Origin: an uncultured Gammaproteobacteria bacterium
Lineage (GTDB): Bacteria; Patescibacteriota; Patescibacteriia; Magasanikbacterales; UBA922
Reading direction: 5' to 3'
Assembly: GCA_964345045.1 (NCBI GenBank)
Contig: CAYFPM010000001.1
Span: forward strand, 300,215 to 364,214
DNA: 64,000 nucleotides
Below the pieces are notes generated by a model. That model saw only the letters and a program-made list of their open reading frames with translations. It did not search any database and was not told the origin of the DNA. Of the stretch, positions 4,426 through 48,583 are shown piece by piece; position 1 is the stretch's first letter, and every line of letters begins with the position of its first letter. The position numbers were made by a program, and so were the translations under genes.

Positions 4426-5346
4426 TTACAACAACTTCTTTTTCCTCATTATTACAATAAGAATGACAATTATAGCAGCCAAGCCAAGAAACATGCTCCA
4501 GACCCAAACCGGATTTTTGGCAAAAGGTAGACCCATTATATTCATACCATAGATACCAGAAAGAAGTGTAAGAGGAAGTAGGGAAACAGAAATAACAGTA
4601 AGAGCGCTGATCACTTTGTTGGTTCTTTGGTTAATCATAGATTCTACTGTAATATGCAAGCCATCTACCGTTTCTTTGTAACTTTCGATAATTGCCCAAA
4701 TTTTACTTAAGTAATCGTTAATATCATCAAAATAAAGACTTAATTTTTCGTCCAAAAAAGTTTTTCTTGTGTGAGAAAGATTGGCAATCATGAATTTTTG
4801 AGGTTCTAAAATTCTTCTAAATTGCAAAATGTTTCGGCGATGTATAGCCAGTTTACGAATAGTTTGAGGATCTTGTTCACCTTCAAAAATTTGATTTTCG
4901 GCAATAGAAAGCTGTTTCCCGATGTTGGTAAGGATTGGTCTGGTATTTTCTAGAAGAGCTTCGATTAGTCTGTATAGCAAGTAACCAGAACTTCCACTCA
5001 TCCAATCGGCTTTTATTTTTCTATTGTTCATGCAGCGGTAAAAAAAGTTTTTCATTTCTTTGCTTTTGCTACGTTGAATTGTAATGATAAAGTTGTCACC
5101 TATAAAAATATCGATTTCAAGTGGTTTGAGAGTTTGGATGTTGGCTTGCCAATGTGGAAAATGAAGAACAATAAAAAGATAGTTTTTGTAGGTATCTATC
5201 TTTGGGATTTGTTGTTCACTTTGGATATCTTCCAAATCCAAATGGTGGAAGTTGTAATTTTTTTTCAAAAAATCCAAAGATTCTTCGTCAATCTTGTCTA
5301 TGCTAACCCAAGTTAAGTTCTTTTGTGTTAGTGTTTTTATAGACAT
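4426..5346 (-). CDS. corA: CorA family magnesium/cobalt transporter
   Basis: Two C-terminal TM helices with the YGMNI (GMN) signature. Confidence 0.85.
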   Translation of the reverse strand: MSIKTLTQKNLTWVSIDKIDEESLDFLKKNYNFHHLDLEDIQSEQQIPKIDTYKNYLFIVLHFPHWQANIQTLKPLEIDIFIGDNFIITIQRSKSKEMKNFFYRCMNNRKIKADWMSGSSGYLLYRLIEALLENTRPILTNIGKQLSIAENQIFEGEQDPQTIRKLAIHRRNILQFRRILEPQKFMIANLSHTRKTFLDEKLSLYFDDINDYLSKIWAIIESYKETVDGLHITVESMINQRTNKVISALTVISVSLLPLTLLSGIYGMNIMGLPFAKNPVWVWSMFLGLAAIIVILIVIMRKKKLL

Positions 5347-5351
5347 AAAAT

Positions 5352-6023
5352 TTATTTTTCTTTTTCTAAATTTATAGTTACGATTACAAATTCTGTTCCT
5401 TCTGATTTTTCAAAACCTTTTATATATACTGCTCCGTCTATATTGTTTTTGTGAAAACTAAATTGTCTGGTTATTCCTTTGTCGGAAGTTACAATTACAT
5501 CAAAACCTTTTTTTCTTAATTCTGTTTTGTAATAAGAAGCTACAAACCAAGGTGTTGCCGGCAAGTCCCTCCATTCTATTTGGACAATATCTCTATGGTC
5601 GGCGATTGGTTCTTCTATTATTTTTCTAAAAGCATCTATATCTATATAAGATTTTTTGGTGCTGGTAGTGTCTTCGTCTCCCAAATGTTTTTCAAGCGTT
5701 ACCAAAATTGGTGACAAAATTATTTTTGGTATAACCACTGCTCTTTCTACAGCTTTGCTTCTATCTTTGCCTGCGGTAATAGCAATTTTTTCTATATTTT
5801 CTGTGTCATAAAGAGGGACAGATAATTCTACACTCCTAGGTAATTCTTTGGCTACTTTTACTTTTGGAGTGGTCGCAAACCTAATTAGAAATAGAGAGAT
5901 TATCAAAAAAATAAATATAAAAGCACAACCGGTGGTACAACTACGCCAAAAACAAGATTTCTTTTTGGATAGTTCCTGGATGGGCGGTTCTTTTATCTCT
6001 ACTTTTTCAATAATCTTTTCCAT
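5352..6023 (-). CDS. hypothetical membrane-anchored protein
   Basis: N-terminal TM helix and native codon usage; no recognisable domain. Confidence 0.45.
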   Translation of the reverse strand: MEKIIEKVEIKEPPIQELSKKKSCFWRSCTTGCAFIFIFLIISLFLIRFATTPKVKVAKELPRSVELSVPLYDTENIEKIAITAGKDRSKAVERAVVIPKIILSPILVTLEKHLGDEDTTSTKKSYIDIDAFRKIIEEPIADHRDIVQIEWRDLPATPWFVASYYKTELRKKGFDVIVTSDKGITRQFSFHKNNIDGAVYIKGFEKSEGTEFVIVTINLEKEK

Positions 6024-6218
6024 ACCTAGTGTTTGGTTATGGTTTTATAAGTAAATCCTCCGGTAGTCTTGGGCATACAAGCTATACACTAGGCGCCGCG
6101 ATTTTGTATACAAATATATTACCACAAACTTGTGTCTACGCATAGTCAGCAGATGCCGAATATGATAACATAAAAGTACATTTTTGTCAGGTATTTAGTC
6201 TTAATTTTAAGCTAATTT

Positions 6219-7568
6219 ATGAAGTTATCTTTTTTTGGAGCAGCTCACGAAGTTACCGGTTCGTGTTTTTTATTAGAAACAAACAAAAAGAAAATTTTGA
6301 TAGATTGTGGCATGTTTCAGGGGTCTAATTTTAACGAAGGCAAAAATAACGATAATTTTCCCTTTGATCCAAAATCTATTGATGCTGTATTGGTAACCCA
6401 TGCTCATTTGGATCATACAGGACGCATCCCCAAACTGATTAGAGAAGGTTTTAAAGGACCAATTTATATGACAAAAGCTACTTGCGAACTGGCTTATTTG
6501 ATTTGGAAAGATTCTCAAAAAATAATGACTTATAACAACAAAAAATTTAAAACACCGATTCTTTATTCTATAGAAGAAGTAGAATCTACTAGAGAAGCTT
6601 GCAATGGAGTTGATTATAGACAAGAGTTAGATTTGGGAGACGGAGTAAAAGCCGTTTGGAAGGATGCCGGTCATATTTTTGGAGCTGCTTTTATAGAAGT
6701 AACTGTCGAGGGTAAAACAATTTGTTTTTCTGGGGATGTGGGCAACAGCAATGTACCGATTCTAAAAGAAACAGATCAATTGGGAGAAATAGATGTTTTG
6801 CTTTGTGAATCTACTTATGGAAATAGACGTCACGAAACTAGAAAAGAAAGTATTGAATTAATTTTGAAATTGATAAAAGAAGGGGTAGAGCGTGGTGGCA
6901 CAGTTATGATTCCATCTTTTTCTTTGGAACGTACACAAGAATTGCTTTATGATTTGAACCAACTTAGCGAAGCCGGAGAACTACCAAAAGTACCTATCTT
7001 TTTGGACAGTCCTATGGCTATAGATGCTTTGCCGGTTTATCGCAAATATCCAGAATACTACGATCGTCAAGCTGCTTGTCTGCACGAAGCTGGAGATGAT
7101 TTTTTTCAATTTGATCAATTGAAAATTACCAGAAGTGTAGAAGAGTCCAAAGCTATAAACAACATAAAAAAATCCAAGATTATAATTGCCGGCTCGGGGA
7201 TGATGAATGGTGGACGAATTGTTCACCATGCTTATAGATATTTGTCGGATCCCAATTCTACACTTATAATTGTAGGTTTTCAGGCTTATGGTACTTTGGG
7301 GCGCAGATTGTACGAAGGTGCCGAGACAGTAAAAATTTTTAATGAAAAAATTCCAGTGCGAGCTACTATCAAAGCGATTGGGGGACTATCTGCTCATGCC
7401 GACCAAAAGAAAATGATAAGTTGGGTGAGAAATGCCGAGAAAATTCCGGAAAAAATTTATTTGGTGCATGGCGAACCAACTTCGGCAGCTTCACTAGCGC
7501 ACAAGTTTCGAGATGAGTTTGGAGTAAAAACAATTGTGCCGGAGTTTGGAGATGCTACCGAAATTTAA
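6219..7568 (+). CDS. beta-CASP family MBL-fold ribonuclease (RNase J/CPSF-like)
   Basis: HAHLDHTG metallo-beta-lactamase motif followed by beta-CASP and RNA-specificity domains. Confidence 0.8.
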   Translation: MKLSFFGAAHEVTGSCFLLETNKKKILIDCGMFQGSNFNEGKNNDNFPFDPKSIDAVLVTHAHLDHTGRIPKLIREGFKGPIYMTKATCELAYLIWKDSQKIMTYNNKKFKTPILYSIEEVESTREACNGVDYRQELDLGDGVKAVWKDAGHIFGAAFIEVTVEGKTICFSGDVGNSNVPILKETDQLGEIDVLLCESTYGNRRHETRKESIELILKLIKEGVERGGTVMIPSFSLERTQELLYDLNQLSEAGELPKVPIFLDSPMAIDALPVYRKYPEYYDRQAACLHEAGDDFFQFDQLKITRSVEESKAINNIKKSKIIIAGSGMMNGGRIVHHAYRYLSDPNSTLIIVGFQAYGTLGRRLYEGAETVKIFNEKIPVRATIKAIGGLSAHADQKKMISWVRNAEKIPEKIYLVHGEPTSAASLAHKFRDEFGVKTIVPEFGDATEI

Positions 7569-7583
7569 AGATAAAAAAACAGC

Positions 7584-7606
7584 CTGTAGGCTTTTATTAG
7601 ATTATT
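7584..7606 (+). terminator. stem-loop (cagcctgtaggct) with flanking A/T runs, after the beta-CASP RNase gene
   Basis: aaaaaaacagcctgtaggcttttatt. Confidence 0.4.
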
Positions 7607-8500
7607 GATGATGTGGACGAGGAGAGGACGCCGGCAACCTAGTGGTAATACCGGCGTCCTCTCTCGCACAACCTCTAGCAGGCAATGCCCCCATAGCCTG
7701 CGAGGATGATGATCCTCCTAGTTTTTCGCGGTGTGGGAACCGAGTGTCATTGCGGCCAATCAACAACACTCGGCTCCCAATCACCCAATCCGCTGTCTTC
7801 TTTTCACACCAGAAGGAGTCTTGGCGTTACTTTTTGAAGACCTTTTCTCCTTTTCTTCCTGCTAGAGAAAGGAGTTCCGGGATTGCTCGCCGAGCACGCA
7901 TGTTTTTTCCCGGGCGGAACGGTTTTAAACCGACAGCCTCGGCACGGCAGGAGTAGAACTCTCTGCCGTGCCGGGCTGCCTGTCGAGGTCGATTAGATTC
8001 CTCTCTGTTTTGCTCGAAGGTGAGGAAGCTAACATCTAGAATTTTCTCCTAGATACAGGTATGAGTCGCGGTAACCTGCCGACCGTGTGCAGTGTGTCCG
8101 TATACTGTCCAAGATCCTCCCACCCTTTGTATACAAACGACGTCGTGATCTTCCAGAGGGGAGAGGAAGATCCTGACTTGTCGCAGTTTTGCGGGTGGTG
8201 AATCAAGGTTAGTTGCGAAAACCAGCCGAGGTCGCCGGGGGGGACGACGCCAGCTGTCACACTGCTTGATTTTTAAGATTGAAAGATCGAGAAACCTATG
8301 GCTCCGGCAGACGTGTGACTGCCTGGTGAAGTTCATTGTGTTCGCCACAACGATCTGCCGGAGCCCGAGGCCCGCTCTTTTTGGGGCTACCAGGGAGGAG
8401 GTAGCCATGGCGTAGTGTAACCGGGTCGGGTTGCACCACTAGAGGTTACGCTTTGATCTTATCCCTGGGGAAGGTCTAAGACAGCCAAGTTTTTGGGGAC
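7607..8500. other. ~0.9 kb high-GC non-coding block (island A) with multiple strong hairpins; unassigned structured RNA or degraded foreign DNA
   Basis: GC ~55-60% against a ~35% background. The only ORFs are Arg/Cys-rich spurious frames. Hairpins include gagaggacgccgg..ccggcgtcctctc, ggcacggcag..ctgccgtgcc and ggctacc..ggtagcc. Confidence 0.4.
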
Positions 8501-11678: not shown

Positions 11679-14327
11679 ATGAAAGATAAAATAACAATCA
11701 AAGGCGCGCGTGAGCATAATCTAAAAAATATTGATCTAGAATTACCTAGGAATAAAATGATTGTGTTCACTGGTCTATCTGGTTCGGGCAAATCGAGCCT
11801 GGCTTTTGATACCATATTTGCCGAGGGGCAACGTAGATATGTAGAAAGCTTGTCGGCCTATGCCAGGCAATTCCTAGGTGGTATGCAGAAGCCAGATGTA
11901 GATGAGATAGAAGGGCTTTCACCAGCTATTTCGATTGATCAGAAGGCTCATAGTGCCAATCCTCGCTCGACCGTAGCGACTATCACCGAGATCTACGATT
12001 ATTTGCGGGTGCTCTATGCTAGAGTCGGGGAGCCGTACTGTCCCGTAGATGGTACCAAGATAGAGAAGATGACTGTAGATGAGATGAATGAGAAGATTTT
12101 GAAGGGATTAAAGAATACTGCCAAACCCTCACCCGCTCGGCCGAAGGCCGAGTCGACCTCTCCCAGAGGGAGAGGTAAAGCTTCAACTTCGACTAAAGTA
12201 TCTAATGAAGTTTTGATTCTCTCGCCAATAGTTCGTGGTAGGAAAGGGGAGTACTACCAGATGCTTTATGATATGTATAATTCTGGTTTTCTAGAAGTGA
12301 GAGTTGATGGCAAAATCAAGAGTTTGCGCAAGCGGATTACTCTTACTAAGAACAAAAAGCACACTATAGAAGTAGTGGTAGACAAATTTCCACTAACAGA
12401 ATTTGAATTTTCTGGCGACAAAGCTGCCAAGCAGCGTCTTGCCGAGGCAGTAGAACAGGCTGTAGATCTATCCAATGGTCTTTGTGTGGTTATATACCCT
12501 GATGGTACCGAGACAGTCTATTCTACAGAATATTCTTGCCCCAAAGATGGTTTTAGCTTTCCAGAAATTGAGCCCAGGCTCTTTAGTTTCAATAGCCCTT
12601 ATGGGCAGTGTGGTTATTGTATGGGGATTGGAACCAAGGAACTCTTTAGTGAAGAATTGTGTCCAAAATGTGAAGGAAAGAGACTCAATGAAAATGCTTT
12701 GTCTGTAAAAGTGAACAAGAAAAATATTTATGAGCTTACCTCAATGGGGATTGGAGATGCCAAGCAATTTGTAGCAGATTTGGAAGAAACCATGAGTGAA
12801 AAAGATCTAGAAATTTCTGGAGCTGTTTTTCGCGAAGTCACGGGTCGTCTTCAATTCATGCTAGACGTAGGGCTAGACTACCTTACTCTAGATCGCAAAG
12901 CTGGCACTCTCTCTGGTGGAGAAGCTCAGCGTATCCGTCTGGCTTCGCAAGTTGGGACCAAACTGGTGGGAGCACTTTATGTGCTCGACGAACCAACCAT
13001 TGGCCTGCACCAGCGCGATAATGATCAGCTTGTTTCAACTCTACGCAATTTGTGTGATGTGGGTAATACTATTATTGTAGTTGAGCATGATGAAGATACT
13101 ATTATTACCAGTGATTGGTTGGTCGACATTGGCCCTGGGGCGGGTAAGCATGGTGGAGACGTGGTTTATTCTGGTCCACTGGAAAAGATTGTGAATTTGA
13201 AATCAAAGGCCAAGAATAATACTGGTTGTAAAGAATATGGTAGTGCCGATAAATCACTGACAGGTAAATACCTGCGCGGTGAGAAAAAGATAGCTGTGCC
13301 AGAGAAGAGGAGAAAGGTAGATAGCTCGACTCCCAAAATTAAGATAAAAGGGGCCAAAGAACATAACTTGAAAAATATTAATGTGGAAATTCCATTGCGT
13401 CGTTTGGTTTGCCTTACTGGTGTTTCTGGATCTGGTAAGTCCACGCTCATGCACGACATTCTATATCGCACAGTAGCCAATAGACTCAACCATGTAAAGA
13501 AAAAAACCGGTGAGCATAAGTCTATTACCAATACCGAATATATCGATAAGATAATTAGAATTGACCAAAGCCCGATTGGTCGCACCCCGCGTAGTAATCC
13601 AGCTACTTATACCAAAGCCTATGACCATATAAGAGAGATCTTTGCCTCTACACCAGAAGCCAGAATCCGTGGTTACAAATCTGGCCGCTTTAGTTTCAAT
13701 ACGCCCAATGGTCGGTGTGAAAATTGTGAAGGTCGGGGATTCCTAGAAATAGAGATGCACTTTTTGCCAAGTGTAGAGATTGTGTGTGATGTGTGCAAGG
13801 GACAAAGATTTGATCACGAAACTTTGCAAGTGCATTACAAAGGCAAAAATATTGCCGAAGTTCTCAATATGACCATCGAAGATGCTGAAGAATTCTTTCG
13901 AGATATTCCGGCAATTTATGATAAATTAAAAGTGCTTAACCAAGTTGGTCTTGACTATTTAACACTTGGTCAGTCGGCCAAGACTCTGTCTGGTGGAGAA
14001 GCGCAGCGTATCAAACTAAGTAAAGAACTCTCCAAAAGAAATACCACCAAGACCCTGTACCTGCTAGACGAACCAACAACTGGGCTGCATTATGATGATG
14101 TACGAAAACTGGTCGATGTGTTACAACGTTTAACTTCTCAGGGTAATACAGTGATGGTGATTGAACACAACTTAGATGTAATCAAATGTGCTGATTGGCT
14201 TATAGATCTAGGCCCAGAAGGTGGTAAAAATGGAGGGCAAGTAGTGGCTGTAGGGACACCAGAGGAGATTGCTCGCAAATCTACCACCAGTTTTACGGGT
14301 AAATATTTGAAGCGAGTTTTGAAATAA
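11679..14327 (+). CDS. uvrA: excinuclease ABC subunit A (UvrA), carrying an in-frame GC-rich insertion
   Basis: Two ABC ATPase modules (GLSGSGKSSL, GVSGSGKSTL), zinc-finger cysteines, LSGGE signatures; extra AKPSPARPKAESTSPRGRGKASTSTKVSNEV. Confidence 0.95.
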   Translation: MKDKITIKGAREHNLKNIDLELPRNKMIVFTGLSGSGKSSLAFDTIFAEGQRRYVESLSAYARQFLGGMQKPDVDEIEGLSPAISIDQKAHSANPRSTVATITEIYDYLRVLYARVGEPYCPVDGTKIEKMTVDEMNEKILKGLKNTAKPSPARPKAESTSPRGRGKASTSTKVSNEVLILSPIVRGRKGEYYQMLYDMYNSGFLEVRVDGKIKSLRKRITLTKNKKHTIEVVVDKFPLTEFEFSGDKAAKQRLAEAVEQAVDLSNGLCVVIYPDGTETVYSTEYSCPKDGFSFPEIEPRLFSFNSPYGQCGYCMGIGTKELFSEELCPKCEGKRLNENALSVKVNKKNIYELTSMGIGDAKQFVADLEETMSEKDLEISGAVFREVTGRLQFMLDVGLDYLTLDRKAGTLSGGEAQRIRLASQVGTKLVGALYVLDEPTIGLHQRDNDQLVSTLRNLCDVGNTIIVVEHDEDTIITSDWLVDIGPGAGKHGGDVVYSGPLEKIVNLKSKAKNNTGCKEYGSADKSLTGKYLRGEKKIAVPEKRRKVDSSTPKIKIKGAKEHNLKNINVEIPLRRLVCLTGVSGSGKSTLMHDILYRTVANRLNHVKKKTGEHKSITNTEYIDKIIRIDQSPIGRTPRSNPATYTKAYDHIREIFASTPEARIRGYKSGRFSFNTPNGRCENCEGRGFLEIEMHFLPSVEIVCDVCKGQRFDHETLQVHYKGKNIAEVLNMTIEDAEEFFRDIPAIYDKLKVLNQVGLDYLTLGQSAKTLSGGEAQRIKLSKELSKRNTTKTLYLLDEPTTGLHYDDVRKLVDVLQRLTSQGNTVMVIEHNLDVIKCADWLIDLGPEGGKNGGQVVAVGTPEEIARKSTTSFTGKYLKRVLK
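12118..12195. repeat. GC-rich palindromic element (CCTCTCCCAGAGGGAGAGG core) inserted in-frame in uvrA
   Basis: aaaccctcacccg...gtcgacctctcccagagggagaggt; near-identical to the right half of the uvrC element. Confidence 0.7.
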
Positions 14328-14364
14328 GTTTCAAGGTACTAATTGACAAAAACTAAAATACTAA

Positions 14365-14394
14365 TCCTGTATTTGCAAAGATACAGGGTTTTTT
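14365..14394 (+). terminator. rho-independent terminator of uvrA
   Basis: cctgtatttgcaaagatacagggtttttt. Confidence 0.6.
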
Positions 14395-14397
14395 ATG

Positions 14398-14426
14398 TTG
14401 ACAAAAAGAAAAAAGCATGATATACA
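14398..14426 (+). promoter_or_regulatory. sigma70-like promoter (TTGACA-17-TATACA) driving a leaderless high-GC small ORF
   Basis: ttgaca at 14398, 17-nt spacer, tataca at 14421; the ATG follows 7 nt downstream. Confidence 0.4.
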
Positions 14427-14432
14427 TTATTT

Positions 14433-14681
14433 ATGTTTTCCGTGAGCAAACTGATGATTCCCTCTCAAATCACCACCGACATCGCCGTCTTCATGATCTG
14501 GGGGTTCTTGATCGCCTCCATGTTGATCTCGATCATGACCTGGTGGAAGTTCTTCCCCTGGCCAACCTCGGTCTGGGCGCGCCGCATCTCGATCGGTGTC
14601 GGGCCGGTCATGTGGGGTGCCTTCTTCATCTTGGCAGCTGTGGTGTACCAGGGTCCGGTCGATCAGTTCGGTGGGCCGTAG
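14433..14681 (+). CDS. small 2-TM membrane protein (82 aa) in a high-GC cassette (island B); possible PLD-N/cardiolipin-synthase-N-like fold
   Basis: GC3-rich codons (atc/gcc/ttc/ctg) and two hydrophobic helices, GPVMWGAFFILAAVVYQG. The other long frames here are Arg/His-rich and spurious. Confidence 0.4.
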   Translation: MFSVSKLMIPSQITTDIAVFMIWGFLIASMLISIMTWWKFFPWPTSVWARRISIGVGPVMWGAFFILAAVVYQGPVDQFGGP

Positions 14682-14786
14682 AAGGTGCCCCTGCGGACGA
14701 CTTAGATGCGGGGAGACAGTGTGCGTGCACCTGTCAACCCGTGTCACCCTTCCTACAAACACTTTGGATAAGTGTTTTTTATATTG

Positions 14787-16001
14787 TCAAAAATTAGCAA
14801 TAAGGTTTTTAAAATCTTGTCTCTTTCTTATCAACCTAATATTTTCACCATCAATTAAAACCTCGGCGGGTAATGGTCTAAATTGATAATTGGTAGCCAT
14901 ACTCATACCATAGGCTCCGGCATTTTTTATTGCCAATATATCTCCTTCGCGGACTTCGTTTAGCATACGGTCTCTAGCAAAATAATCGGCACATTCACAA
15001 ATATTGCCAACCACATCATACTCTCTATACATGCCATCTGGATTACTCAAATTTACAATTGGATGGTAGGAATCATACATAGCCGGGCGGACCAGGTGGT
15101 TCATACCAGTATCTGTACCTACCACAGTATGGCGACTAATCGTTTCTTTGATTGTGTTTACTTTTGTTAACAAAGTTCCGGATTCGGCTACAATATATCT
15201 ACCAGGCTCAAATCTTAGTTGAATATTTCGATTATATTCAGATTCAAATCTATCCATTCTTTTTTTAATTTCTTTACCCAAAGTTTTCAAATCCAATCGA
15301 TTTTCTTCTGGTTTGTAAGGTACTCCAAAACCACCACCAACATCTACAAATTCTAGATTTGGAAATTGTTTGGCAATGTCTAGTATTACATCGAGTGCCA
15401 AAATCGGTTCTCGTAGTCGTAGCCAGCCAGAACCAATATGTTGGTGTACACCAACTATTTGTAGATTGTGTTTTGTAGCAATAATTTTTACTTTTTCTAC
15501 ATCTTGAAAAAAAATACCAAATTTGGAATTTGGTCCACCAGTTATATTTGATTCATGCGAAGCAATACCAATGTTTGGATTGAAACGAATAGAGATTCTA
15601 GAATTTGGGTAGTTTTTTCCATATTTTTCCAGTCTAGACAAAGAACCAATGTTTTGCAAAACTCCCAAGTTTTGGACTTCTTCCATCTCGGCATTGGTCA
15701 TGTTGTTGCCAGTAAACATAATATTTTCTGGTTTGGCGCCACAGTGCAGACCTAGTTTTACTTCTTCTACAGAAACAGCATCTATCCCACAGCCAAGTTT
15801 TATTATTTCTTTAACTATTGTTGGATTATAATTAGCTTTTATAGCGTACAAAAATTTGGTATTTTGGTGCAGACCCAGATAGTTTTGTAATTTTGCAATT
15901 CGGTTTTGGATTATTTGTAAATTGTAAACATAAAGCGGACTGCCAAAATGCTCGCAAAGTTCTGTGGGACTATAATTGTTAAATATTTCATTTTGGTTCA
16001 T
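14787..16001 (-). CDS. lysA: diaminopimelate decarboxylase (LysA)
   Basis: PLP-dependent Orn/DAP decarboxylase fold with YAIKAN PLP-lysine motif and GGG loop; native low GC. Confidence 0.9.
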   Translation of the reverse strand: MNQNEIFNNYSPTELCEHFGSPLYVYNLQIIQNRIAKLQNYLGLHQNTKFLYAIKANYNPTIVKEIIKLGCGIDAVSVEEVKLGLHCGAKPENIMFTGNNMTNAEMEEVQNLGVLQNIGSLSRLEKYGKNYPNSRISIRFNPNIGIASHESNITGGPNSKFGIFFQDVEKVKIIATKHNLQIVGVHQHIGSGWLRLREPILALDVILDIAKQFPNLEFVDVGGGFGVPYKPEENRLDLKTLGKEIKKRMDRFESEYNRNIQLRFEPGRYIVAESGTLLTKVNTIKETISRHTVVGTDTGMNHLVRPAMYDSYHPIVNLSNPDGMYREYDVVGNICECADYFARDRMLNEVREGDILAIKNAGAYGMSMATNYQFRPLPAEVLIDGENIRLIRKRQDFKNLIANF

Positions 16002-16063
16002 ATTTTTGTTTAAGAATAATGGATTTGATAATGAATGGGGGAGCCTGCGTTCTCCTTGTATAT

Positions 16064-16321
16064 TTACGCAGGCTGTGATGAGGGGGTGATGACGACTCGG
16101 CCACGACCAGTGACTGGGATCCAGCTGCCGGTGATAAGGTGCTGTTCTTTGCCAAATTCGGTCAAAGTTCCTTCTTGGATTTGATAGCTATTGCCTTTGT
16201 CCGTGCAAGCCGATTTTGGGACTTGGGCAGTAAAAGGTGGAACCCCTTCTCCGCCAGCATCGCCTGGTGTGAGATGAAGTTTGATTTTGTCTCCATCTAT
16301 TTCTACCTTGGCAATAGTCAT
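16064..16321 (-). CDS. hypothetical 85-aa high-GC ORF between aspartokinase and lysA
   Basis: MTIAKVEIDGDKIKLHLTPGDAGGEG...; sits in the aspartokinase-lysA gap; not ACT-like; could be spurious in high-GC DNA. Confidence 0.25.
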   Translation of the reverse strand: MTIAKVEIDGDKIKLHLTPGDAGGEGVPPFTAQVPKSACTDKGNSYQIQEGTLTEFGKEQHLITGSWIPVTGRGRVVITPSSQPA

Positions 16322-16335
16322 TTCTAGTTTGGGCG

Positions 16336-17157
16336 TCATGCTGCGATCCTCTCGGCCGTAGTCGAGATTACCGTACCAGCACGAGTACCGGTCATGGTGT
16401 TGCACACCTCGATCGGTACCAGGCCAGCGGCCAGCTCGACAGCTCGGGGGTGGACCACGCAGGCGTTGAGGGCAAGGAAGTTTGCCGGAGTGATCTCGGT
16501 GAACAATGTGGCATCGGCGTGTTGGTTGGGGTCTTTGTTGTAGACTCCGTCTACGTCGGTCCAGTTGCAGTGAGTAGCCGAGAGGGCCACGGCGAGTAGG
16601 CTTGCCGTTACATCCGAACCCCCACGCCCGAGCGTGATGACCCGGCCGTCTGCCGTAGCACCGTAGAAACCAGGCACGATCACCTGGTGACCATTGCATC
16701 GCTCGCGGATAAGTTGGTAGGTGGCTTCGAGGTCGATGTTGCCTTCGTCGTCCACACGGATCACATTGGCTGCGTCGACAAATTGGGAACCAGTAAGCTC
16801 GGCCATGATCTGAGCCATGAGCCACTCGCCGCGCGAGGCAGCCAAGTCGTAGCTAGACTTGATCTCAAAGCGAACCTGATTGAGAAGCTTCTCGATGTCG
16901 ATCGATAAGCCGAGCTCGGACACAATGCTCTCGAACCGAGCGACGATCGCGGCCCAGTTCGCCTCGAAGTCTTCGCCACGCTGGCAGGCAATGAAGCGGT
17001 CAGTGAGCTTGGTAGCATCGGCTGGCAACTTGCCCGGAGCCGAGCAAACGACTGCCTGGCAGCCGTGGTTGCTTTGGATGATCTCGAAAACCCGCCGGAC
17101 GTTTTGGGCACATGAAAGCGACGTGCCACCAAACTTGCAGATAGTTTTTTCGGTCAT
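16336..17157 (-). CDS. aspartate kinase catalytic (amino-acid kinase) domain, no ACT regulatory domains; high GC
   Basis: KFGGTSL and LGRGGSD aspartokinase motifs. Ends at the catalytic/ACT boundary (273 aa). Strong SD aggagggtg upstream. GC ~60%. Confidence 0.7.
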   Translation of the reverse strand: MTEKTICKFGGTSLSCAQNVRRVFEIIQSNHGCQAVVCSAPGKLPADATKLTDRFIACQRGEDFEANWAAIVARFESIVSELGLSIDIEKLLNQVRFEIKSSYDLAASRGEWLMAQIMAELTGSQFVDAANVIRVDDEGNIDLEATYQLIRERCNGHQVIVPGFYGATADGRVITLGRGGSDVTASLLAVALSATHCNWTDVDGVYNKDPNQHADATLFTEITPANFLALNACVVHPRAVELAAGLVPIEVCNTMTGTRAGTVISTTAERIAA

Positions 17158-17501
17158 TTCACCCTCCTAGGTGATAAAAAGAGCCTTAGCTCGTTTGAAC
17201 TAGTGAGCTCCAATTGCTTGGAACCCGGTTTGTTCAACCGATTTTTGGAATACGAAAAAACCGCCCAGGAGGCGGTTTCTAGTAATTTTTGGGTACTAAG
17301 AAATTCACCTCGCTGGGGCGGTCATCTTCTTGGTCTTTTTTGTAGCAAGAATGAATTTCATAATATTTTGAGCTTACTAGGATTTTTCGGATTTGTAAAA
17401 TTTTTTGTGGATAAGAGGGGAATTTAGGTCTCTTTGACGATTGTGTTATTATATCTACAATAAAAAATAAAGGTTTTTTAAGGGTAATAAAAGGAGGGAA
17501 C

Positions 17502-18083
17502 ATGCCAGAAAAATATAAAAATAAATATCGGATACCATCAGCCAGATATAAAGGTTGGAATTATGGATGGGATGGATATTATTTTGTGACAATTTGTACA
17601 AAAAATAGGGAACATTTTTTTGGAAATATTGTGGAAGGGAAAATGATTTTGTCGGAAATTGGGGAAATGGTCGAAAAATATTGGTATGAAATTCCAAAAC
17701 ATTTTTCATTTGTACGGTTGGATGCGTTTGTGGTAATGCCGAACCATTTTCATGCCATTGTGATAATTGATAAAAATAATGATAAACCGGTAGAGACGCA
17801 TTGCAATGCGTCTCTACAACAACGGGATGTATATAAAAAATCAAATGATCATCGTGAATACCAAAATAAATTCGGCCCGCAAAAACACAATTTGGCGTCC
17901 ATAATTCGTGGTTTCAAAGGGACGGTAACCAAACAGGTCAACGAAAGATTTGGTGATGAATATTTCGCCTGGCAACCCCGATTCCACGAACACATTATCC
18001 GCAACGAAATAGCGTTGGAAAGAATTCGTAAATATATAAAATTAAATCCTTGGAAATGGCAAGATGATTGTTTTTTCAAATAA
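17502..18083 (+). CDS. REP-associated tyrosine transposase (RAYT) / IS200-like Y1 HUH transposase
   Basis: YYFVTICTKNRE, HuH motif NHFHAIV, WQPRFHEHIIRNE...IRKYIKLNPWKW tyrosine region. Confidence 0.75.
   Translation: MPEKYKNKYRIPSARYKGWNYGWDGYYFVTICTKNREHFFGNIVEGKMILSEIGEMVEKYWYEIPKHFSFVRLDAFVVMPNHFHAIVIIDKNNDKPVETHCNASLQQRDVYKKSNDHREYQNKFGPQKHNLASIIRGFKGTVTKQVNERFGDEYFAWQPRFHEHIIRNEIALERIRKYIKLNPWKWQDDCFFK
17790..17817. repeat. 28-nt perfect palindrome inside the RAYT ORF
   Basis: GTAGAGACGCATTGCAATGCGTCTCTAC, encoding VETHCNASLQ between the HuH and Tyr regions. Confidence 0.6.
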
Positions 18084-19931: not shown

Positions 19932-19960
19932 TTGACAATTTAATAAAATTGTGTTAATAA
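19932..19960 (+). promoter_or_regulatory. candidate promoter (TTGACA-17-TAATAA) for the high-GC small ORF
   Basis: ttgaca at 19932; weak -10. Confidence 0.3.
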
Positions 19961-19998
19961 AAATATATTCTCGTTTAGAGATGGAAGGAGCTAATAGA

Positions 19999-20208
19999 AT
20001 GACTAACGTTACGTACGAGACCTGCCCGGGGTGTGGTGGTACCAGGTCAAGGGGTCACTACGGTGGCACCAGGTGTCCCCGCTGTTCCAGGAATGCTCGC
20101 GAGTCCAGGCGTCGCACCGCCGCCGCGATCGGTGACGCAATCATCGAGGGGCCAATCGCGGTTGTCAAGGGCGTGAGGAGCGTCTTCAGGTTCTTAAACC
20201 AGCTCTGA
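19999..20208 (+). CDS. small Arg-rich zinc-ribbon protein (CPGCGG...CPRC), high GC (island D)
   Basis: SD ggaaggag 8 nt upstream of ATG; CxxC-x14-CxxC; GC ~62%; its own terminators follow. Confidence 0.45.
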   Translation: MTNVTYETCPGCGGTRSRGHYGGTRCPRCSRNARESRRRTAAAIGDAIIEGPIAVVKGVRSVFRFLNQL

Positions 20209-20247
20209 CCGCCAGGTCCAGGTTCTGCGAGAGCAACCGAGAATGCG

Positions 20248-20312
20248 GGAGCACGATTAGTCGTGCTCCTGCCTCAAACTTCAATTTGTTACAGCCTGTA
20301 GGCTGTTTTTTT
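20248..20312 (+). terminator. two consecutive hairpins (ggagcacga..tcgtgctcc; acagcctgtaggctgt + T7) ending island D
   Basis: The second hairpin core cagcctgtaggct is identical to the one at 7590. Confidence 0.5.
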
Positions 20313-20359
20313 GTTTACAAATAAACTAAATTTTTATCCACAAAAGTGGGTATTTGTGG

Positions 20360-37992: not shown

Positions 37993-38018
37993 GTTCCTCC
38001 TGGATTTTGGTTCTCGAC

Positions 38019-38729
38019 TTAGTTATCGAGGGCTTTTCTGGCGTCTAGCTTTTGGAGCAGGCTGCGAATCCCAAAGGGAATGGCAATCGCCCCGGCGACT
38101 GTAGCCACGTAGAGCGGCCAAGTGCCTACGCTTTGGTCGGCGTATAGAATGCCTCCCACCAGAATCAGCTCTGCTACCATCTTGATCTTGCCAGATAGCT
38201 TGGCTTTGAGATCCAGCTGTTTGCCGGATTCGAGAGCCACAGCTTCTTTGTTGGATTGGTAGTCCTCCACTCGGATAACCAAGAGTGCCATTTCGAGTAG
38301 AAAGAGGGCTGTACAGACCATAACCTCTGCACTCACAAGGAGTGGAGGAGGTTTTATCTCTATTTGCTTGGTGCAGATCAGTGACAGGAGTAACAAGAAA
38401 TACACCTTGTCGCCGACAGCATCGACATACGCGCCGTAATCTCCGGCGGTGCCTTTGGCTCTTGCCACCAGTCCATCGACGTAGTCGAGAAAACTGTTGG
38501 CGGTGTAGGCCAGCAAGATCAAGCTCATGTAGAGCAGGTTTTCGCTGTAGCGAATACTGGCAAGGCCAATGGGAATGGCCATGACCACCCGAAAGTAGGT
38601 GATCCGGTTGGCCGTGATCCAGCTGGGCAGCCTCTTGGCAGCGGGGATGAAGGTGCGGTCAAGCCAGGAATATCCCCGGCCGAAACCACTTTCGATCGAG
38701 GTGGCGAGGGTCGTCGTGTCCTGGCTCAT
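38019..38729 (-). CDS. CDP-alcohol phosphatidyltransferase paralog, high GC (~58%) (island F)
   Basis: LDYVDGLVARAKGTAGDYGAYVDAVGDKV motif; convergent with the native paralog; AT-rich SD aaggaagg upstream. Confidence 0.75.
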   Translation of the reverse strand: MSQDTTTLATSIESGFGRGYSWLDRTFIPAAKRLPSWITANRITYFRVVMAIPIGLASIRYSENLLYMSLILLAYTANSFLDYVDGLVARAKGTAGDYGAYVDAVGDKVYFLLLLSLICTKQIEIKPPPLLVSAEVMVCTALFLLEMALLVIRVEDYQSNKEAVALESGKQLDLKAKLSGKIKMVAELILVGGILYADQSVGTWPLYVATVAGAIAIPFGIRSLLQKLDARKALDN

Positions 38730-38816
38730 TTTTTACCTTCCTTTTTTTAAAAAGTTGTCAAAAAAGCCAAATTACTAGTATCATATAATAAAAAGAAAAT
38801 CAAGCCCAGTAATAAA

Positions 38817-44760: not shown

Positions 44761-45028
44761 GTAGTGGGTAGTGGTTTGGTGGATGTTTTTTGGCTAAATT
44801 TAGATAAAAAAGTCTAGCTTGGGCTAGCTTTTTTGGTTTTATCTGATTTTGGTTGACAAAAGGTGTTTTTTTTGGTAATTTTAGCTGTCAATTCTATAAT
44901 AGGATAATTGTATGCGGAGACTGTAATTGGTTGGGAGAAGGTGAAATTTCTTCCACCCTATGCGTTCTTCGTCGTTCAGAAATTTTTAGTATGAACGGCA
45001 AAACAATTTAGAAGGAGGAAGGTTAGAA

Positions 45029-45868
45029 ATGAGTGACAAAAAAGGAAAAGTAGAAGTCACTGAGCAGGTTCATCTCGGACGATCTTGGAGGGTAGGTGAA
45101 GCGTACGATCCTGGTTCCGATATGCCCACGGGTATGGAGGAAGTGCCGAAAGACTTCCTTGACGATGATGGTGCTACGGAGGATGAGCCTGACGATACAG
45201 AGGTTCAACTGGTTCGTCCGCTCACAGACAGCCAAGTGGATCAGCCTGCCCCCGCCGGGCTGGGCTACTACGATGAGCCTCCTACGGAGGAGGGCCCCCC
45301 TCTTCCTTCGGAATCGCCTGCTGTGGTCTCTATCCCCACCGATACGCTCGTGCAGCAACCGGCATTGAGTTGGTGGCAGATTCCTGGCAACTGGGTCAAG
45401 GTGGTGACTATCTTGCTCGTTTTTGTCGTGGCTCTTTTGTTGGGCATGCTCAACAAAAAGTCGGATGAAGAGATCAAGGCTGAACCGCTTGATCAAGCTG
45501 CCCCGGCAAGTAAGCTGGTAGACATTCCCGATGATCCCCCTGTGGCTACGTCGGCGGTCGCTACCGCCCCAGATGCTGGAGTGATGCCCGAGGATCCTCC
45601 TCGGGTAGCTCCAGTGCTCAGGAGGAGTGGTCCTGATGCGGGAGTGAAGAAGGCGGTCAAGAGGAAGGCAAAGAAACGTCGGGAGAAACGCAAGAAGAAA
45701 CCGGCGAAAGATCCAGAAGAAACTACTACCACCCACCAACTTTTGCCTGGAGAGTCTGTCGAAGACTACTGTGACCGGTGGTCTGCCAAAACTTTTTCCA
45801 GCCCTGGCTTGGCTAGGATTGGCGCTTACAAAAGCTGTGTCAAGGAATTGAAAGGAGGAGGCAAATGA
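45029..45868 (+). CDS. single-pass membrane protein with acidic Pro-rich N-region and Lys-rich C-region; high GC (island E gene 1)
   Basis: SD gaaggagg upstream. The first ~14 codons are AT-rich and then GC rises to ~62%. One TM helix (VKVVTILLVFVVALLLGML). Confidence 0.5.
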   Translation: MSDKKGKVEVTEQVHLGRSWRVGEAYDPGSDMPTGMEEVPKDFLDDDGATEDEPDDTEVQLVRPLTDSQVDQPAPAGLGYYDEPPTEEGPPLPSESPAVVSIPTDTLVQQPALSWWQIPGNWVKVVTILLVFVVALLLGMLNKKSDEEIKAEPLDQAAPASKLVDIPDDPPVATSAVATAPDAGVMPEDPPRVAPVLRRSGPDAGVKKAVKRKAKKRREKRKKKPAKDPEETTTTHQLLPGESVEDYCDRWSAKTFSSPGLARIGAYKSCVKELKGGGK

Positions 45869-46791
45869 GAGCCTTCGTGATTGCTATCTTTTTGGTTTTT
45901 TCTTCCAGCTTGATGGCGCAAGCCTCTGACTGGAAGGACGTTCTGCATCTCCCTCCGAAAGATCCGGGCAGCCCACGATTGGTGGGCAAGGCAGCCGACG
46001 TCATGGGGGCTTTGGCTCACTGTCAGCAAGAAGTCCGTTGTCAGATCTTGGTGAAGGAGGATAAGCCCGGTGGGACTGAGTATGGGAATATGTGGCACGA
46101 GGAGTGTTACGAACTTCTCAACTCGGCCGCGATCATGAAACCAGGGCCGGAAACTTGGTTCGTCTCGGAAAAAGACGAGATGGTGGTAGCGATAGATGAT
46201 CCTGGCTCTGGTGGCCACGAAGGTGCTGTGATCAAGTGCCGAGTAGATCCCAAGCCGGCTACCATGCCCTCTATGCCATCGTCACCCCCACCAACCGTAG
46301 CCAAAGCGGTCGAACTTCAAGGTGAGAGCGATTTCAAGTTCGCCCTCACAGTCGACTTCGGAGTCGGTTTCTCACGACTCGATCCGTCGCCGGACCATTA
46401 CTTCGACGGTACGGTCGGCATCGGAGGACTGCTCTTGATCAATGATTTCTGGGAGGTCGCTCTCCGAATCGACTTTGGTGGGACATTCCGCGAGGGACAG
46501 ACGTGGTACTTCGTACCACAGCTCTCTGGCGGGGTGCGACCGGCCGACTGGATATACTTCGGCGTCTTTGGGCGCCTTGGTGGTGCAACCCAGGGATCCT
46601 ACTGGGGTAACCTAGGATTTGGAGTACGGGTGTACCCGCTCAAGATCTTCGGATCGGAGTTCCCGTTGGCTGTCTTCTTCGAGACCGATGCCCTTGGGCG
46701 TCAGGTCACACCGGAGACCGAGACCCACAACCCTGGCGATCAGGGGCGCATGGGCCTGCGCGGTGGTCTACGCTACGAAGCTTTTTTCTAA
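45865..46791 (+). CDS. secreted protein with beta-barrel-like C-terminus ending ...YEAFF (island E gene 2)
   Basis: Signal peptide MRAFVIAIFLVFSSSLMAQA; Gly/aromatic-rich alternating pattern; terminal Phe like OMP beta-barrels; ATGA overlap with gene 1. Confidence 0.5.
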   Translation: MRAFVIAIFLVFSSSLMAQASDWKDVLHLPPKDPGSPRLVGKAADVMGALAHCQQEVRCQILVKEDKPGGTEYGNMWHEECYELLNSAAIMKPGPETWFVSEKDEMVVAIDDPGSGGHEGAVIKCRVDPKPATMPSMPSSPPPTVAKAVELQGESDFKFALTVDFGVGFSRLDPSPDHYFDGTVGIGGLLLINDFWEVALRIDFGGTFREGQTWYFVPQLSGGVRPADWIYFGVFGRLGGATQGSYWGNLGFGVRVYPLKIFGSEFPLAVFFETDALGRQVTPETETHNPGDQGRMGLRGGLRYEAFF

Positions 46792-46911
46792 CGTTCATTT
46801 TTTGGCGGATGAGATCTTTCGAGATCCATCCGCCCCGTTCACATGTTCAGCATTGCAAATGCTGTGCAGGTGTTGGGTAACGCTCTTTCAAATTTTGGAA
46901 AGGAAAACAAG

Positions 46912-48384
46912 ATGAAGAAGATCGCTTTGGCCGTCTTGGCCGCACTGTTCACCTCCACCGGCTGCGAGGTGGTAAACCTCGGCAGCCCGGGTATGGCGCC
47001 GACTGAGAAGCACTTCGTGCAGTATGACGGCGGAGATCTCGACGCAGGTTTCATCGTCGGCGACGACGTGGGGCCCATCGATATGGGCTTCATCGACGCT
47101 GGCTACGATGTCGGCTTCCGCGACGCCAACCTCGACGCAGAGGCAATGGATGCGATCGCTGACGCCGACGTGACCGATGTCTACGACGACGTTGGGTTCG
47201 CTGATGCAGAAGCAGATTCTGGTCTGGACGACAGCGGGGTTCACCCCGATGCCGACTTGCCGGACGCGATCGTAGACTCGGGACCCGAGGATACTGGCGT
47301 CCACCCGGACGCCTTTGTCCCCGACATGGGTTTCCCAGACGCCGAGCCGATCGACGCCGTGATCCATCCCGATGCGGAGATTACGGACAATGGAATCCAC
47401 TTTGACGCCACAGTATACCCCGATGCTACGCCAGACACAGGGTTCCCAGACAGCGGCTTTGCCGACTCTGGGACTCTGGATTCTGGACTCGACGCTGGGG
47501 TTATCGACGGTGGTGGCCCGCCTGTTTGTCCGGCCGGGTTCATCTATGTAGCTCCTGGTTCGTTCACTATGGGGACTCCGGCTGCAGCACCGTGGTTCTC
47601 CTCGCCAGAAGGACCGCAACACCAGGTCAGTTTGACCTATGGCTACATCATGGGGGAGACCGAGGTAACCAGAGCCCAGCTGCAAGCAGTGTTGGGCATT
47701 GCTCGAGATCCTTCTTGGAACACCGGCTGTGGGGCAAATTGCCCGGCTACCAACGTGAGCTGGGACCTGGCGGCCGAGTATGCCAATGCTCTTTCTATTA
47801 GCCAAGGTCTGTCTCCATGCTACGCTGGCTCTGCCGGGAGCTACACTTTCGTAGGACTCTCGTGTACTGGCTGGCGTATGCCGACCGAGGCCGAGTGGGA
47901 ATTTGCCGCTCGAGCTGGTAGTACCACTGCCTTTTGGAATGGTGACCCAGTGAACTTCTCCTCGGGGAGTGCTATGACAACCTTTGGTGAGCCTGGGCAT
48001 GCAATTGCCTGGTGGTTGGCCAATAGTCAGGTAGCCTACACTCCAGCTGTGGACACGTTCACGGCTCCGGACAATGGATTTACCATGGCTGGTACGCACC
48101 CGGTAGCCACCAAGACCCCCAATCCGCTCGGTCTCTATGACATGAACGGCAACGTCTGGGAGCTTACCTCGGATTGTTGGACGCAGACCTACCCGGGATC
48201 AAATCCCAGAACCAATCCGGTGACCGGGGCTGGTACCCGGTGTGCCAGTATTGTGAGGCGTGGAGGAAGTTTTGCCGACCCGCAAAGCTCCTTGCACAAC
48301 TCCACTAGGTTTGGAGATTTCCCGCATGTTCAGAATCCTCTCAATGGTTTCCGGATAGCGCGTAATCACCCGGCCTGCCAGTAG
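46912..48384 (+). CDS. lipoprotein with Asp-rich HPDA repeats and C-terminal FGE-sulfatase (SUMF1/DUF323) domain (island E gene 3)
   Basis: Lipobox LFTSTGC; GSFTMGTP...TNVSWDLAAEYANALS...GWRMPTEAEWEFAARAG...YDMNGNVWELTSDCW...RGGSF. Confidence 0.7.
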   Translation: MKKIALAVLAALFTSTGCEVVNLGSPGMAPTEKHFVQYDGGDLDAGFIVGDDVGPIDMGFIDAGYDVGFRDANLDAEAMDAIADADVTDVYDDVGFADAEADSGLDDSGVHPDADLPDAIVDSGPEDTGVHPDAFVPDMGFPDAEPIDAVIHPDAEITDNGIHFDATVYPDATPDTGFPDSGFADSGTLDSGLDAGVIDGGGPPVCPAGFIYVAPGSFTMGTPAAAPWFSSPEGPQHQVSLTYGYIMGETEVTRAQLQAVLGIARDPSWNTGCGANCPATNVSWDLAAEYANALSISQGLSPCYAGSAGSYTFVGLSCTGWRMPTEAEWEFAARAGSTTAFWNGDPVNFSSGSAMTTFGEPGHAIAWWLANSQVAYTPAVDTFTAPDNGFTMAGTHPVATKTPNPLGLYDMNGNVWELTSDCWTQTYPGSNPRTNPVTGAGTRCASIVRRGGSFADPQSSLHNSTRFGDFPHVQNPLNGFRIARNHPACQ

Positions 48385-48583
48385 AGTCGCCTCATTTCTT
48401 TTCCTTTTACCCCTCTCGAGTCACGCCCACCCAAGCGCGACTCGAGAACATCCATCCCATACTTTTTTAACACTGATTACGCTGATTTAAATTATAGATT
48501 TCGCAGATTTATATGTGTGTGAAAGGTAAGTTTACTAGGTGTAGGATGATTGTTTTTTTACACAGATTACATAGATTGATACA

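Follow-up and report, generated by a model that had tools for sequence, protein, structure and literature searches.

Here we report that a 64,000-nt stretch of DNA, hereafter called the window, from a tiny-genome, Magasanikbacteria-like bacterium of the candidate phyla radiation (CPR) carries on its minus strand a gene for a 273-aa protein (16336..17157) that is a genuine aspartate-kinase catalytic domain of class I (Clostridium type), intact and stand-alone, without ACT domains. The gene is followed by a 91-aa open reading frame (ORF), here named ORF2, and then by lysA, the gene for diaminopimelate (DAP) decarboxylase, and kinases of the same truncated form lie directly upstream of lysA on at least three other contigs. 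We propose that these proteins form a small clade, to all appearance not yet described, of aspartokinases that consist of the catalytic domain only and are linked to lysA in CPR genomes, and that an unregulated first step of DAP/lysine synthesis is the most likely function of the window kinase, an assignment in which we have moderate confidence. From composition and phyletic pattern, the likeliest origin of the kinase block, which stands before a native lysA, is horizontal acquisition or the replacement of an older kinase.

A stand-alone aspartokinase catalytic domain

The domain assignment was obtained from Pfam and NCBIfam searches, alignment to a solved aspartokinase, an AlphaFold2 model and Foldseek comparison. 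In Pfam, AA_kinase (PF00696) is the sole match (103 bits, profile positions 2-234 of 234), and it covers both the N-lobe and the C-lobe. The NCBIfam aspartate-kinase models match the kinase over the first 285-300 positions only (PRK09034 at positions 3-292 of 454), and the curated equivalog cut-offs are missed (171 versus 434 bits for PRK09034, 147 versus 209 for TIGR00657) because the C-terminal third, 160 positions, is absent from the kinase. Neither Pfam nor NCBIfam finds an ACT domain in the protein, tblastn recovered no ACT remnant in any frame of 14001-17600 with eight homologues as queries, of which six were full-length, and no ACT-domain gene occurs in the annotated parts of the window. 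The gene also carries no frameshifts against its homologues, and therefore the pseudogene that the sequence-only reading had considered as a possible objection finds no support.

The closest solved relative by sequence is the Clostridium acetobutylicum aspartokinase (CaAK; 3tvi, E 4e-39), to which residues 5-266 of the window kinase align over positions 5-278 of the 446-residue chain. The catalytic domain of CaAK comprises residues 1-282 and is followed by two ACT domains, which hold the lysine binding site and the dimer interface (PMC4142519). The C-terminus of the window kinase falls at this catalytic/ACT boundary, at about CaAK residue 282 and 4-9 residues past the last catalytic-domain strand, just as the sequence-only reading had placed it, and the alignment thus bears out the proposed loss of the ACT domains. 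The AlphaFold2 model, for which 46 homologues were used, has high confidence along the whole chain apart from the last few residues (pLDDT 93.9, pTM 0.92). Its Foldseek superposition on 3tvi gives a TM-score of 0.91-0.92 when normalised by the query and 0.58 when normalised by the target, with an rmsd of 1.8 Å, a pattern expected of a catalytic domain alone; the TM-score to 2j0w is 0.84. CaAK is the best match in both sequence and structure, with the same catalytic domain, the same motifs and the same type of 'SAPGK...K(I/L)TD' insertion, but the identity is only about 40% (34-35% in the structural match).

The catalytic motifs are present throughout, including the two, KFGGTSL and LGRGGSD, from which an aspartokinase had first been read: KFGGTS(L) at K8-S13, SRGE at S108-E111, LGRGGSD at G177-D182 and WTDVDG at W199-G204. 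These residues align with their counterparts in 3tvi and in E. coli AKIII, and most of them are invariant columns in the 46-sequence alignment. In the alignments, K8, T45, E119, F184 and R198-D202 of E. coli AKIII correspond to K8, T52, E111, F164 and R178-D182 of the window kinase, and we take these AKIII residues, in role and numbering, to be the aspartate-binding ones of the 2J0W structure. The predicted reaction would be the ATP-dependent phosphorylation of L-aspartate to beta-aspartyl phosphate, step one of the DAP/lysine pathway (EC 2.7.2.4). To our knowledge, lysine or threonine binds at the ACT domains in all characterised aspartokinases; since the window kinase has none, it should escape end-product feedback.

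The window kinase is a singleton in the databases; its closest relatives there are about 40-42% identical and are mostly Clostridia-type aspartokinases of 436-456 aa with ACT domains; no homologue closer than about 43% identity was found among 5.8 billion proteins. Short aspartokinase homologues are already known from Thermococcales, namely TIGR02078 AspKin_pair (327 positions) and PRK08373 (338 positions), against the usual 400-470 aa, and presumably these match only the N-terminal half of aspartokinases. The window kinase scores far under their cut-offs (63.4 versus 242.4 bits for TIGR02078 and 76 versus 237 for PRK08373). Its sequence affinities place it in the bacterial PRK09034-type lineage, with an ACT loss that would be independent of the Thermococcales forms.

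The kinase-ORF2-lysA block and its recurrence

The kinase, ORF2 and lysA stand head to tail on the minus strand. A Shine-Dalgarno sequence, AGGAGGG, read directly from the DNA (17162..17168, minus strand, with AGGAGG at 17163-17168), precedes the kinase ATG by about 5 nt, so that the strong ribosome-binding site of the sequence-only reading is real. ORF2 (16064..16339, minus strand) starts within an ATGA overlap with the kinase stop codon and lies out of frame relative to the kinase; the overlap suggests that the two would be co-translated through translational coupling. This ORF had been described as 85 aa long and high in GC. The ORF stands, but the shorter length counts from its second Met, and the 91 codons from the ATGA start have an intermediate GC content of 49.6%. 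From the ORF2 stop to the lysA ATG (16001) there are, as earlier stated, 62 nt (16002-16063).

The lysA gene (14787..16001, minus strand) encodes 404 aa and is identified by TIGR01048, whose cut-off of 297.9 bits it exceeds with a score of 382. Its product has the PLP-barrel (PF02784) and the C-terminal sheet (PF00278), and K55, EPGR268, R305, C335-E336 and D339 are invariant over 35 relatives. It is 60-73% identical to dozens of proteins, of which the named ones are all from Candidatus Magasanikbacteria, and therefore lysA is native to this CPR lineage. The composition of the two genes differs sharply: lysA has a GC content of 35.1% (GC3 0.26) and the kinase one of 58.5% (GC1 0.59, GC2 0.46, GC3 0.70), close to the 60% first estimated, while the whole window has 38.3%, and the kinase ranks top for GC among the 60 non-overlapping window ORFs of at least 100 aa. 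The compositional boundary claimed earlier is found at about position 16050, where GC falls from 50-65% to 26-43% inside about 100 nt. Sharp steps occur at both ends of the GC-rich block, which is short (about 1.25 kb) and internal to the contig.

Aspartokinase is the first and LysA the last enzyme of the DAP/lysine pathway. No terminator lies between the genes on the coding strand, so they are probably co-transcribed, and the probable single transcript, carrying the coupled ORF2 as well, would tie the pathway's first enzyme to its last. The next non-coding terminator-like hairpin on the minus strand is at 14366-14387 and is common to uvrA; a second minus-strand match of the terminator scan sits within lysA and is probably spurious.

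Two known systems resemble this arrangement. The curated bifunctional aspartokinase/DAP decarboxylase PRK08961 (861 positions) joins the same two activities, and it is matched by the window kinase at positions 8-310 and by the window LysA at positions 500-860 (307 bits). However, PRK08961 is one polypeptide, whereas the window has two genes, with a stop codon, the 91-aa ORF2 in a different frame and a 62-nt gap between them. Positions 311-499 of PRK08961, about 190 in number, are unmatched by either window protein, and we take them to be the regulatory (ACT) region. In the alpha2beta2 aspartokinases (LysC alpha/beta of Corynebacterium glutamicum, Bacillus and Thermus; 3aaw), a small separate regulatory polypeptide comes from the 3′ end of the kinase gene; this beta subunit is built from ACT domains, and its translation begins in frame inside lysC. 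By its position ORF2 could be mistaken for such a beta subunit, but it is out of frame, has no ACT signature and is predicted to be all-beta rather than beta-alpha-beta-beta-alpha-beta, and on this evidence it is no ACT substitute or subunit.

ORF2 itself is an ORFan. It belongs to no Pfam, NCBIfam or PHROG family, and a word-index search of 5.8 billion proteins returned no homologue. The matches from an exhaustive search of 1.84 billion representatives were limited to a translated repeat and, weakly (E 2e-4), a beta-rich protein of repetitive sequence. The single-sequence AlphaFold2 model of ORF2, of moderate confidence (pLDDT 72.7), has nine strands and is all-beta, and a fold search with this model gave no significant structural neighbour.

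To find related arrangements, the genomic contexts of LysA relatives were looked up and metagenome contigs were scanned with a LysA alignment; 90 loci were then searched by tblastn with kinase queries. A scan of a genome collection with LysA gave a single, unrelated Bacteroidota locus. Three further loci have an ACT-less kinase directly upstream of lysA: L016 (296 aa, GC 50.7%, beside a LysA gene of 41.2%), L091 (267 aa, 63.7% beside 45.8%) and L003 (277 aa, 61.0% beside 44.0%). Their LysA proteins are 67-70%, 72-73% and 29% identical to that of the window, respectively. Together with the window kinase, all end no more than 10 residues past the last catalytic-domain strand, with ...RIAA as the C-terminus of both the window and the L091 proteins, and all of the clade kinases (267-296 aa) are enriched in GC by 8-20 points over their own surroundings. 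In a neighbour-joining (NJ) tree of the catalytic domain, the four ACT-less kinases cluster next to a Clostridia-type clade. The occurrence of the same arrangement in at least three other genomes indicates that it is not an accident.

The pairing of a kinase with lysA extends well beyond this clade. The genes overlap or abut in L017, L020, L021 and L042 (29-33% GC), all with a full-length kinase, the order AK-asd-lysA is found in L019 and L022, and in L031, L033 and L073 the pair is surrounded by dapB, dapA, dapF, asd and a class I/II aminotransferase. Kinase-lysA linkage is an ordinary expression of the DAP/lysine pathway and is widespread in related small genomes. Accordingly, of the earlier proposal that a kinase had been inserted into a native lysA operon, the native lysA and the foreign composition of the kinase stand, but a unique insertion does not. 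The neighbours of L017 look archaeal (CDC48, a RadA/KaiC-like protein and topoisomerase I). The LysA proteins of L017, L020, L021 and L042 are about 50% identical to CPR proteins, and one relative (P0179) is named Nanoarchaeota. This suggests that the kinase-lysA pair is common to CPR bacteria and DPANN-like archaea.

A second ACT loss was found in L036, where a 298-aa kinase with AA_kinase only stands beside lysA like that of the window. However, this kinase lies downstream of lysA, has a native AT-rich composition (34.9% GC) and falls in another clade with AT-rich full-length kinases, being 47% identical to that of L017; the different clade implies an independent, convergent ACT loss. A 'split' aspartokinase in L004 (1354-2673), with parts of 275 aa and a 136-aa ACT protein, aligns by tblastn as one segment with a 439-aa full-length kinase (70% identity), so that its two parts are divided by an in-frame stop. 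A recent nonsense mutation, an error in the sequencing or recoding of the stop codon may account for it.

The complete 1.23-Mb CPR chromosome L006 (GCA_965231005.1), whose LysA is 69% identical to the window LysA, has the order kinase, 84-aa ORF, LysA (35% GC) and DapF. Its 472-aa kinase (5134-6552; 51% GC) is very divergent, with degenerate motifs (KLGGTT, and LPSGGTD for LGRGGSD) and ACT similarity below threshold only, and its function may have changed or been lost. Two kinase-less Magasanikbacteria-type loci, L005 (6000-7000) and L011 (3200-4950), have GC-rich DNA of up to 62-68% immediately upstream of LysA. This DNA holds short or unknown ORFs only, and no kinase remnants were found upstream of LysA in either locus with a hidden Markov model on six-frame translations. 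In L011, a 114-aa ORF ends 62 nt before LysA, a spacing equal to that of the window.

Origin of the kinase block and competing explanations

The histories of the kinase and LysA are decoupled. The LysA proteins of the window, L091 and L016 are 67-74% identical to one another and only 29-31% identical to that of L003, whereas the four ACT-less kinases show a uniform 39-45% identity at every level of LysA identity. In loci with the synteny SMC-[kinase]-LysA-KhpA, the kinase is present in L091 and absent from L093, and L016 and L006 share queA, tgt and peptidase_C39 neighbours while their kinases are only 27% identical. These decoupled identities, the presence and absence of the kinase, and the GC content raised at all codon positions favour acquisition or replacement of the kinase before a vertically inherited lysA. 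GC-rich islands make up about 9% of the window, so that one GC-rich gene would be unremarkable; that the property is shared by all four clade members, and by the L006 kinase too, is remarkable.

Several observations weigh against the reading of an acquired, unregulated first enzyme of the pathway. Neither the 5.8 billion proteins nor the plasmid and phage collections, where nothing exceeded 36% identity as a source of the kinase, yielded a GC-rich donor with a close homologue, so that the horizontal origin is argued from composition and phyletic pattern only. The bootstrap support of the ACT-less clade is moderate (60%). At the level of transcription, a promoter scan of the minus strand detected no sigma-70-like promoter before either the kinase or lysA, and a 9-bp perfect inverted repeat, AGCCTGCGT...ACGCAGGCT (16042..16074; RNA fold -14.7 kcal/mol, z -3.45), separates ORF2 from lysA. 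This hairpin spans the ORF2 stop exactly at the GC/AT compositional junction, with no T-run after it on the coding strand. The other DAP-pathway genes whose presence the sequence-only reading had raised were not recovered in the window: asd, dapA, dapB, dapD/L and dapF are all missing from its 64 kb, and an aspartokinase gives no benefit without Asd, although asd, dapA, dapB and dapF presumably lie elsewhere in the genome. Finally, the protein has a 4-residue deletion, also relative to CaAK, and substitutions in the usually conserved C-lobe stretch 'RELSYMGAxVLH', and class-I aspartokinases dimerise via their ACT domains (PMC4142519), which places the stability and activity of a bare domain in doubt.

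One alternative is a repurposed kinase module, possibly with ORF2 as a new partner or regulator, that works outside the canonical pathway, for instance in a LysA/DapF salvage without asd and dapAB or with a substrate that is not aspartate. Stoichiometric co-expression is suggested by the ATGA overlap, the ORF2 model points to a folded all-beta protein (pLDDT 73), dapF (in L006) is the only gene to join the kinase-lysA pair in Magasanikbacteria-type loci, and the L006 kinase lacks the Arg of GRGGSD. Small GC-rich ORFs also take the position of ORF2 in L006, L011 and L005 and show marginal similarity to it (shuffle p 0.01-0.04). We nevertheless judge this explanation unlikely, as the window kinase retains every aspartate-binding residue, ORF2 has no detectable homologue and no such ORF exists in L016, L091 or L003, and related lineages hold the kinase-lysA pair in ordinary DAP clusters. 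The homology of ORF2 to the three small ORFs is itself unproven at those p values, and jackhmmer retrieved none of them.

Alternatively, the gene may be a neutral passenger or decaying relic, a foreign aspartokinase fragment that lies without function on GC-rich DNA and whose position before lysA is incidental. Such a relic would suit a window in which GC-rich islands are frequent and several of them encode ORFans, which holds no other DAP gene, and in which the kinase has lost the ACT dimer interface and carries a deletion in a conserved stretch of its C-lobe; kinase-free GC-rich DNA also precedes LysA in L005 and L011. A decaying fragment is, however, hard to reconcile with 273 open codons, a full set of catalytic motifs, a strong Shine-Dalgarno sequence and a confidently modelled fold (pLDDT 94). 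The same truncated form, with the same boundary, stands before lysA in three other genomes with kinases 39-45% identical, which means that it has persisted through long divergence, and L036 represents an independent ACT loss beside lysA in a gene of native composition. We therefore regard the relic as decidedly unlikely.

A further alternative is vertical inheritance with a gene-specific GC bias, in which the ACT-less kinase would be an old, fast-evolving CPR resident, passed down together with lysA, that some local process keeps GC-rich. Each clade member, and the L006 kinase as well, is GC-rich within its own genome, the searched databases yielded no matching donor or closer homologue, and the position of the kinase relative to lysA is constant in the synteny of the L016/L006 type (queA, tgt, peptidase C39). 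But GC1, GC2 and GC3 are all raised, as after a long stay in a GC-rich genome, the kinase distances do not follow those of LysA (the L003 kinase is 43% identical and its LysA 29%), the kinase comes and goes between syntenic loci, the kinases of L016 and L006 differ greatly despite their synteny, and no known mechanism would keep one gene alone at a GC content 20 points over that of its genome; this makes an undisturbed vertical descent very doubtful. An assembly chimera of a GC-rich organism's DNA and a CPR contig, to which the sharp GC steps at both block ends might point, is practically negligible, since the exact kinase protein occurs on three independent contigs with the same junction (134 kb and 41 kb from two separately assembled PRJEB17505 runs, and the 621-kb NCBI contig), the neighbours (uvrA, uvrC and beyond) are identical on both ENA contigs, the block is short and embedded, and analogous blocks exist in other genomes.

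Horizontal acquisition or replacement in front of a native lysA thus remains the preferred reading of the kinase block. A more far-reaching version of it would be that the ACT-less GC-rich kinases are a horizontally circulating plug-in, repeatedly captured or exchanged directly before vertical lysA genes in Magasanikbacteria-like CPR and giving an unregulated entry into DAP/lysine synthesis, with ORF2 and its L006, L011 and L005 counterparts as a new small partner of the kinase or of LysA; we put this forward as a speculation that is more likely wrong than right by a wide measure.

Flanking features and implications

Upstream of the kinase, a GC hairpin followed by a T6 run (17255..17279, minus strand; RNA fold -16.1 kcal/mol, z -3.0) resembles a terminator in its sequence, and it was not reported by the consensus terminator scan. 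It would shield the kinase from minus-strand transcription coming from upstream. An Rfam scan of the window returned one tRNA only, and no lysine riboswitch was found. Farther upstream lies an AT-rich gene for an IS200/RAYT-like Y1 transposase (17502..18083, plus strand; Pfam Y1_Tnp 32 bits, NCBIfam REP_Tyr_transpos 70.5 against a cut-off of 80), which points away from the kinase in divergent orientation and overlaps the start of uvrC. Within its coding region sits a perfect 28-bp palindrome, GTAGAGACGCATTGCAATGCGTCTCTAC, at 17790-17817, present in a single copy in the window. The hairpin at 16042..16074 was considered as a REP-like repeat and rejected, as it too occurs only once in the window, where chance alone predicts 0 copies.

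A GC-rich mini-island (14385..14793, about 64% GC, with a 364-bp insert) lies between the terminator of uvrA and the stop codon of lysA and is flanked by the 23-nt direct repeat D4, AGGGTTTTTTATGTTGACAAAAA at 14385-14407 and AGTGTTTTTTATATTGTCAAAAA at 14771-14793, whose copies are 87% identical; the lysA stop codon falls inside the second copy. The element looks like an insertion with target-site duplication. It contains an 82-aa ORF on the plus strand (14433-14681, GC3 0.84) with two transmembrane-like segments and no match in Pfam, NCBIfam or PHROG, and automated gene calls put a 111-aa ORF on the opposite strand. A relationship to the GC-rich 84-aa ORF beside LysA in L093 was considered, and no similarity was found.

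Other GC-rich islands (at least 50% GC) occur at 7600-8500, 19950-20350 and 38000-38750, the last with a CDP-alcohol phosphatidyltransferase gene (38019-38729, GC3 0.67) that adjoins an AT-rich paralogue. A large one at 45000-48400 (3.4 kb, 55-58% GC) is also found on one of the ENA contigs and has three plus-strand ORFs of 279, 308 and 513 aa. The 513-aa product ends in a C-terminal FGE-sulfatase domain, a fold that we take to be a typical target of diversity-generating retroelements; the window showed no reverse transcriptase. The 279- and 308-aa ORFs have no Pfam match on record and no PHROG match. The window also encodes LepA, MurJ, CorA, an RNase J-like beta-CASP protein, UvrB, UvrA, UvrC, MraZ, RsmH, ClpB, DnaB, RecR, MurA and glycosyltransferases, and it has riboflavin genes.

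Among allosterically controlled branch-point enzymes, aspartokinase is the textbook case, and the solved and characterised aspartokinases found in this analysis all have ACT domains. Literature searches on CPR kinase-lysA modules and on ACT-less aspartokinases gave nothing directly relevant. Natural catalytic-domain-only aspartokinases would be ready-made feedback-insensitive enzymes for lysine and threonine overproduction, and an ACT-less lineage would test the stability and activity of the bare catalytic domain. The GC excess of one gene family over several genomes is a compositional pattern worth noting in its own right. The kinase-lysA block described here bears on how minimal-genome CPR bacteria obtain diaminopimelate and lysine for their cell wall, and it suggests that these bacteria patch their metabolic operons with foreign genes.

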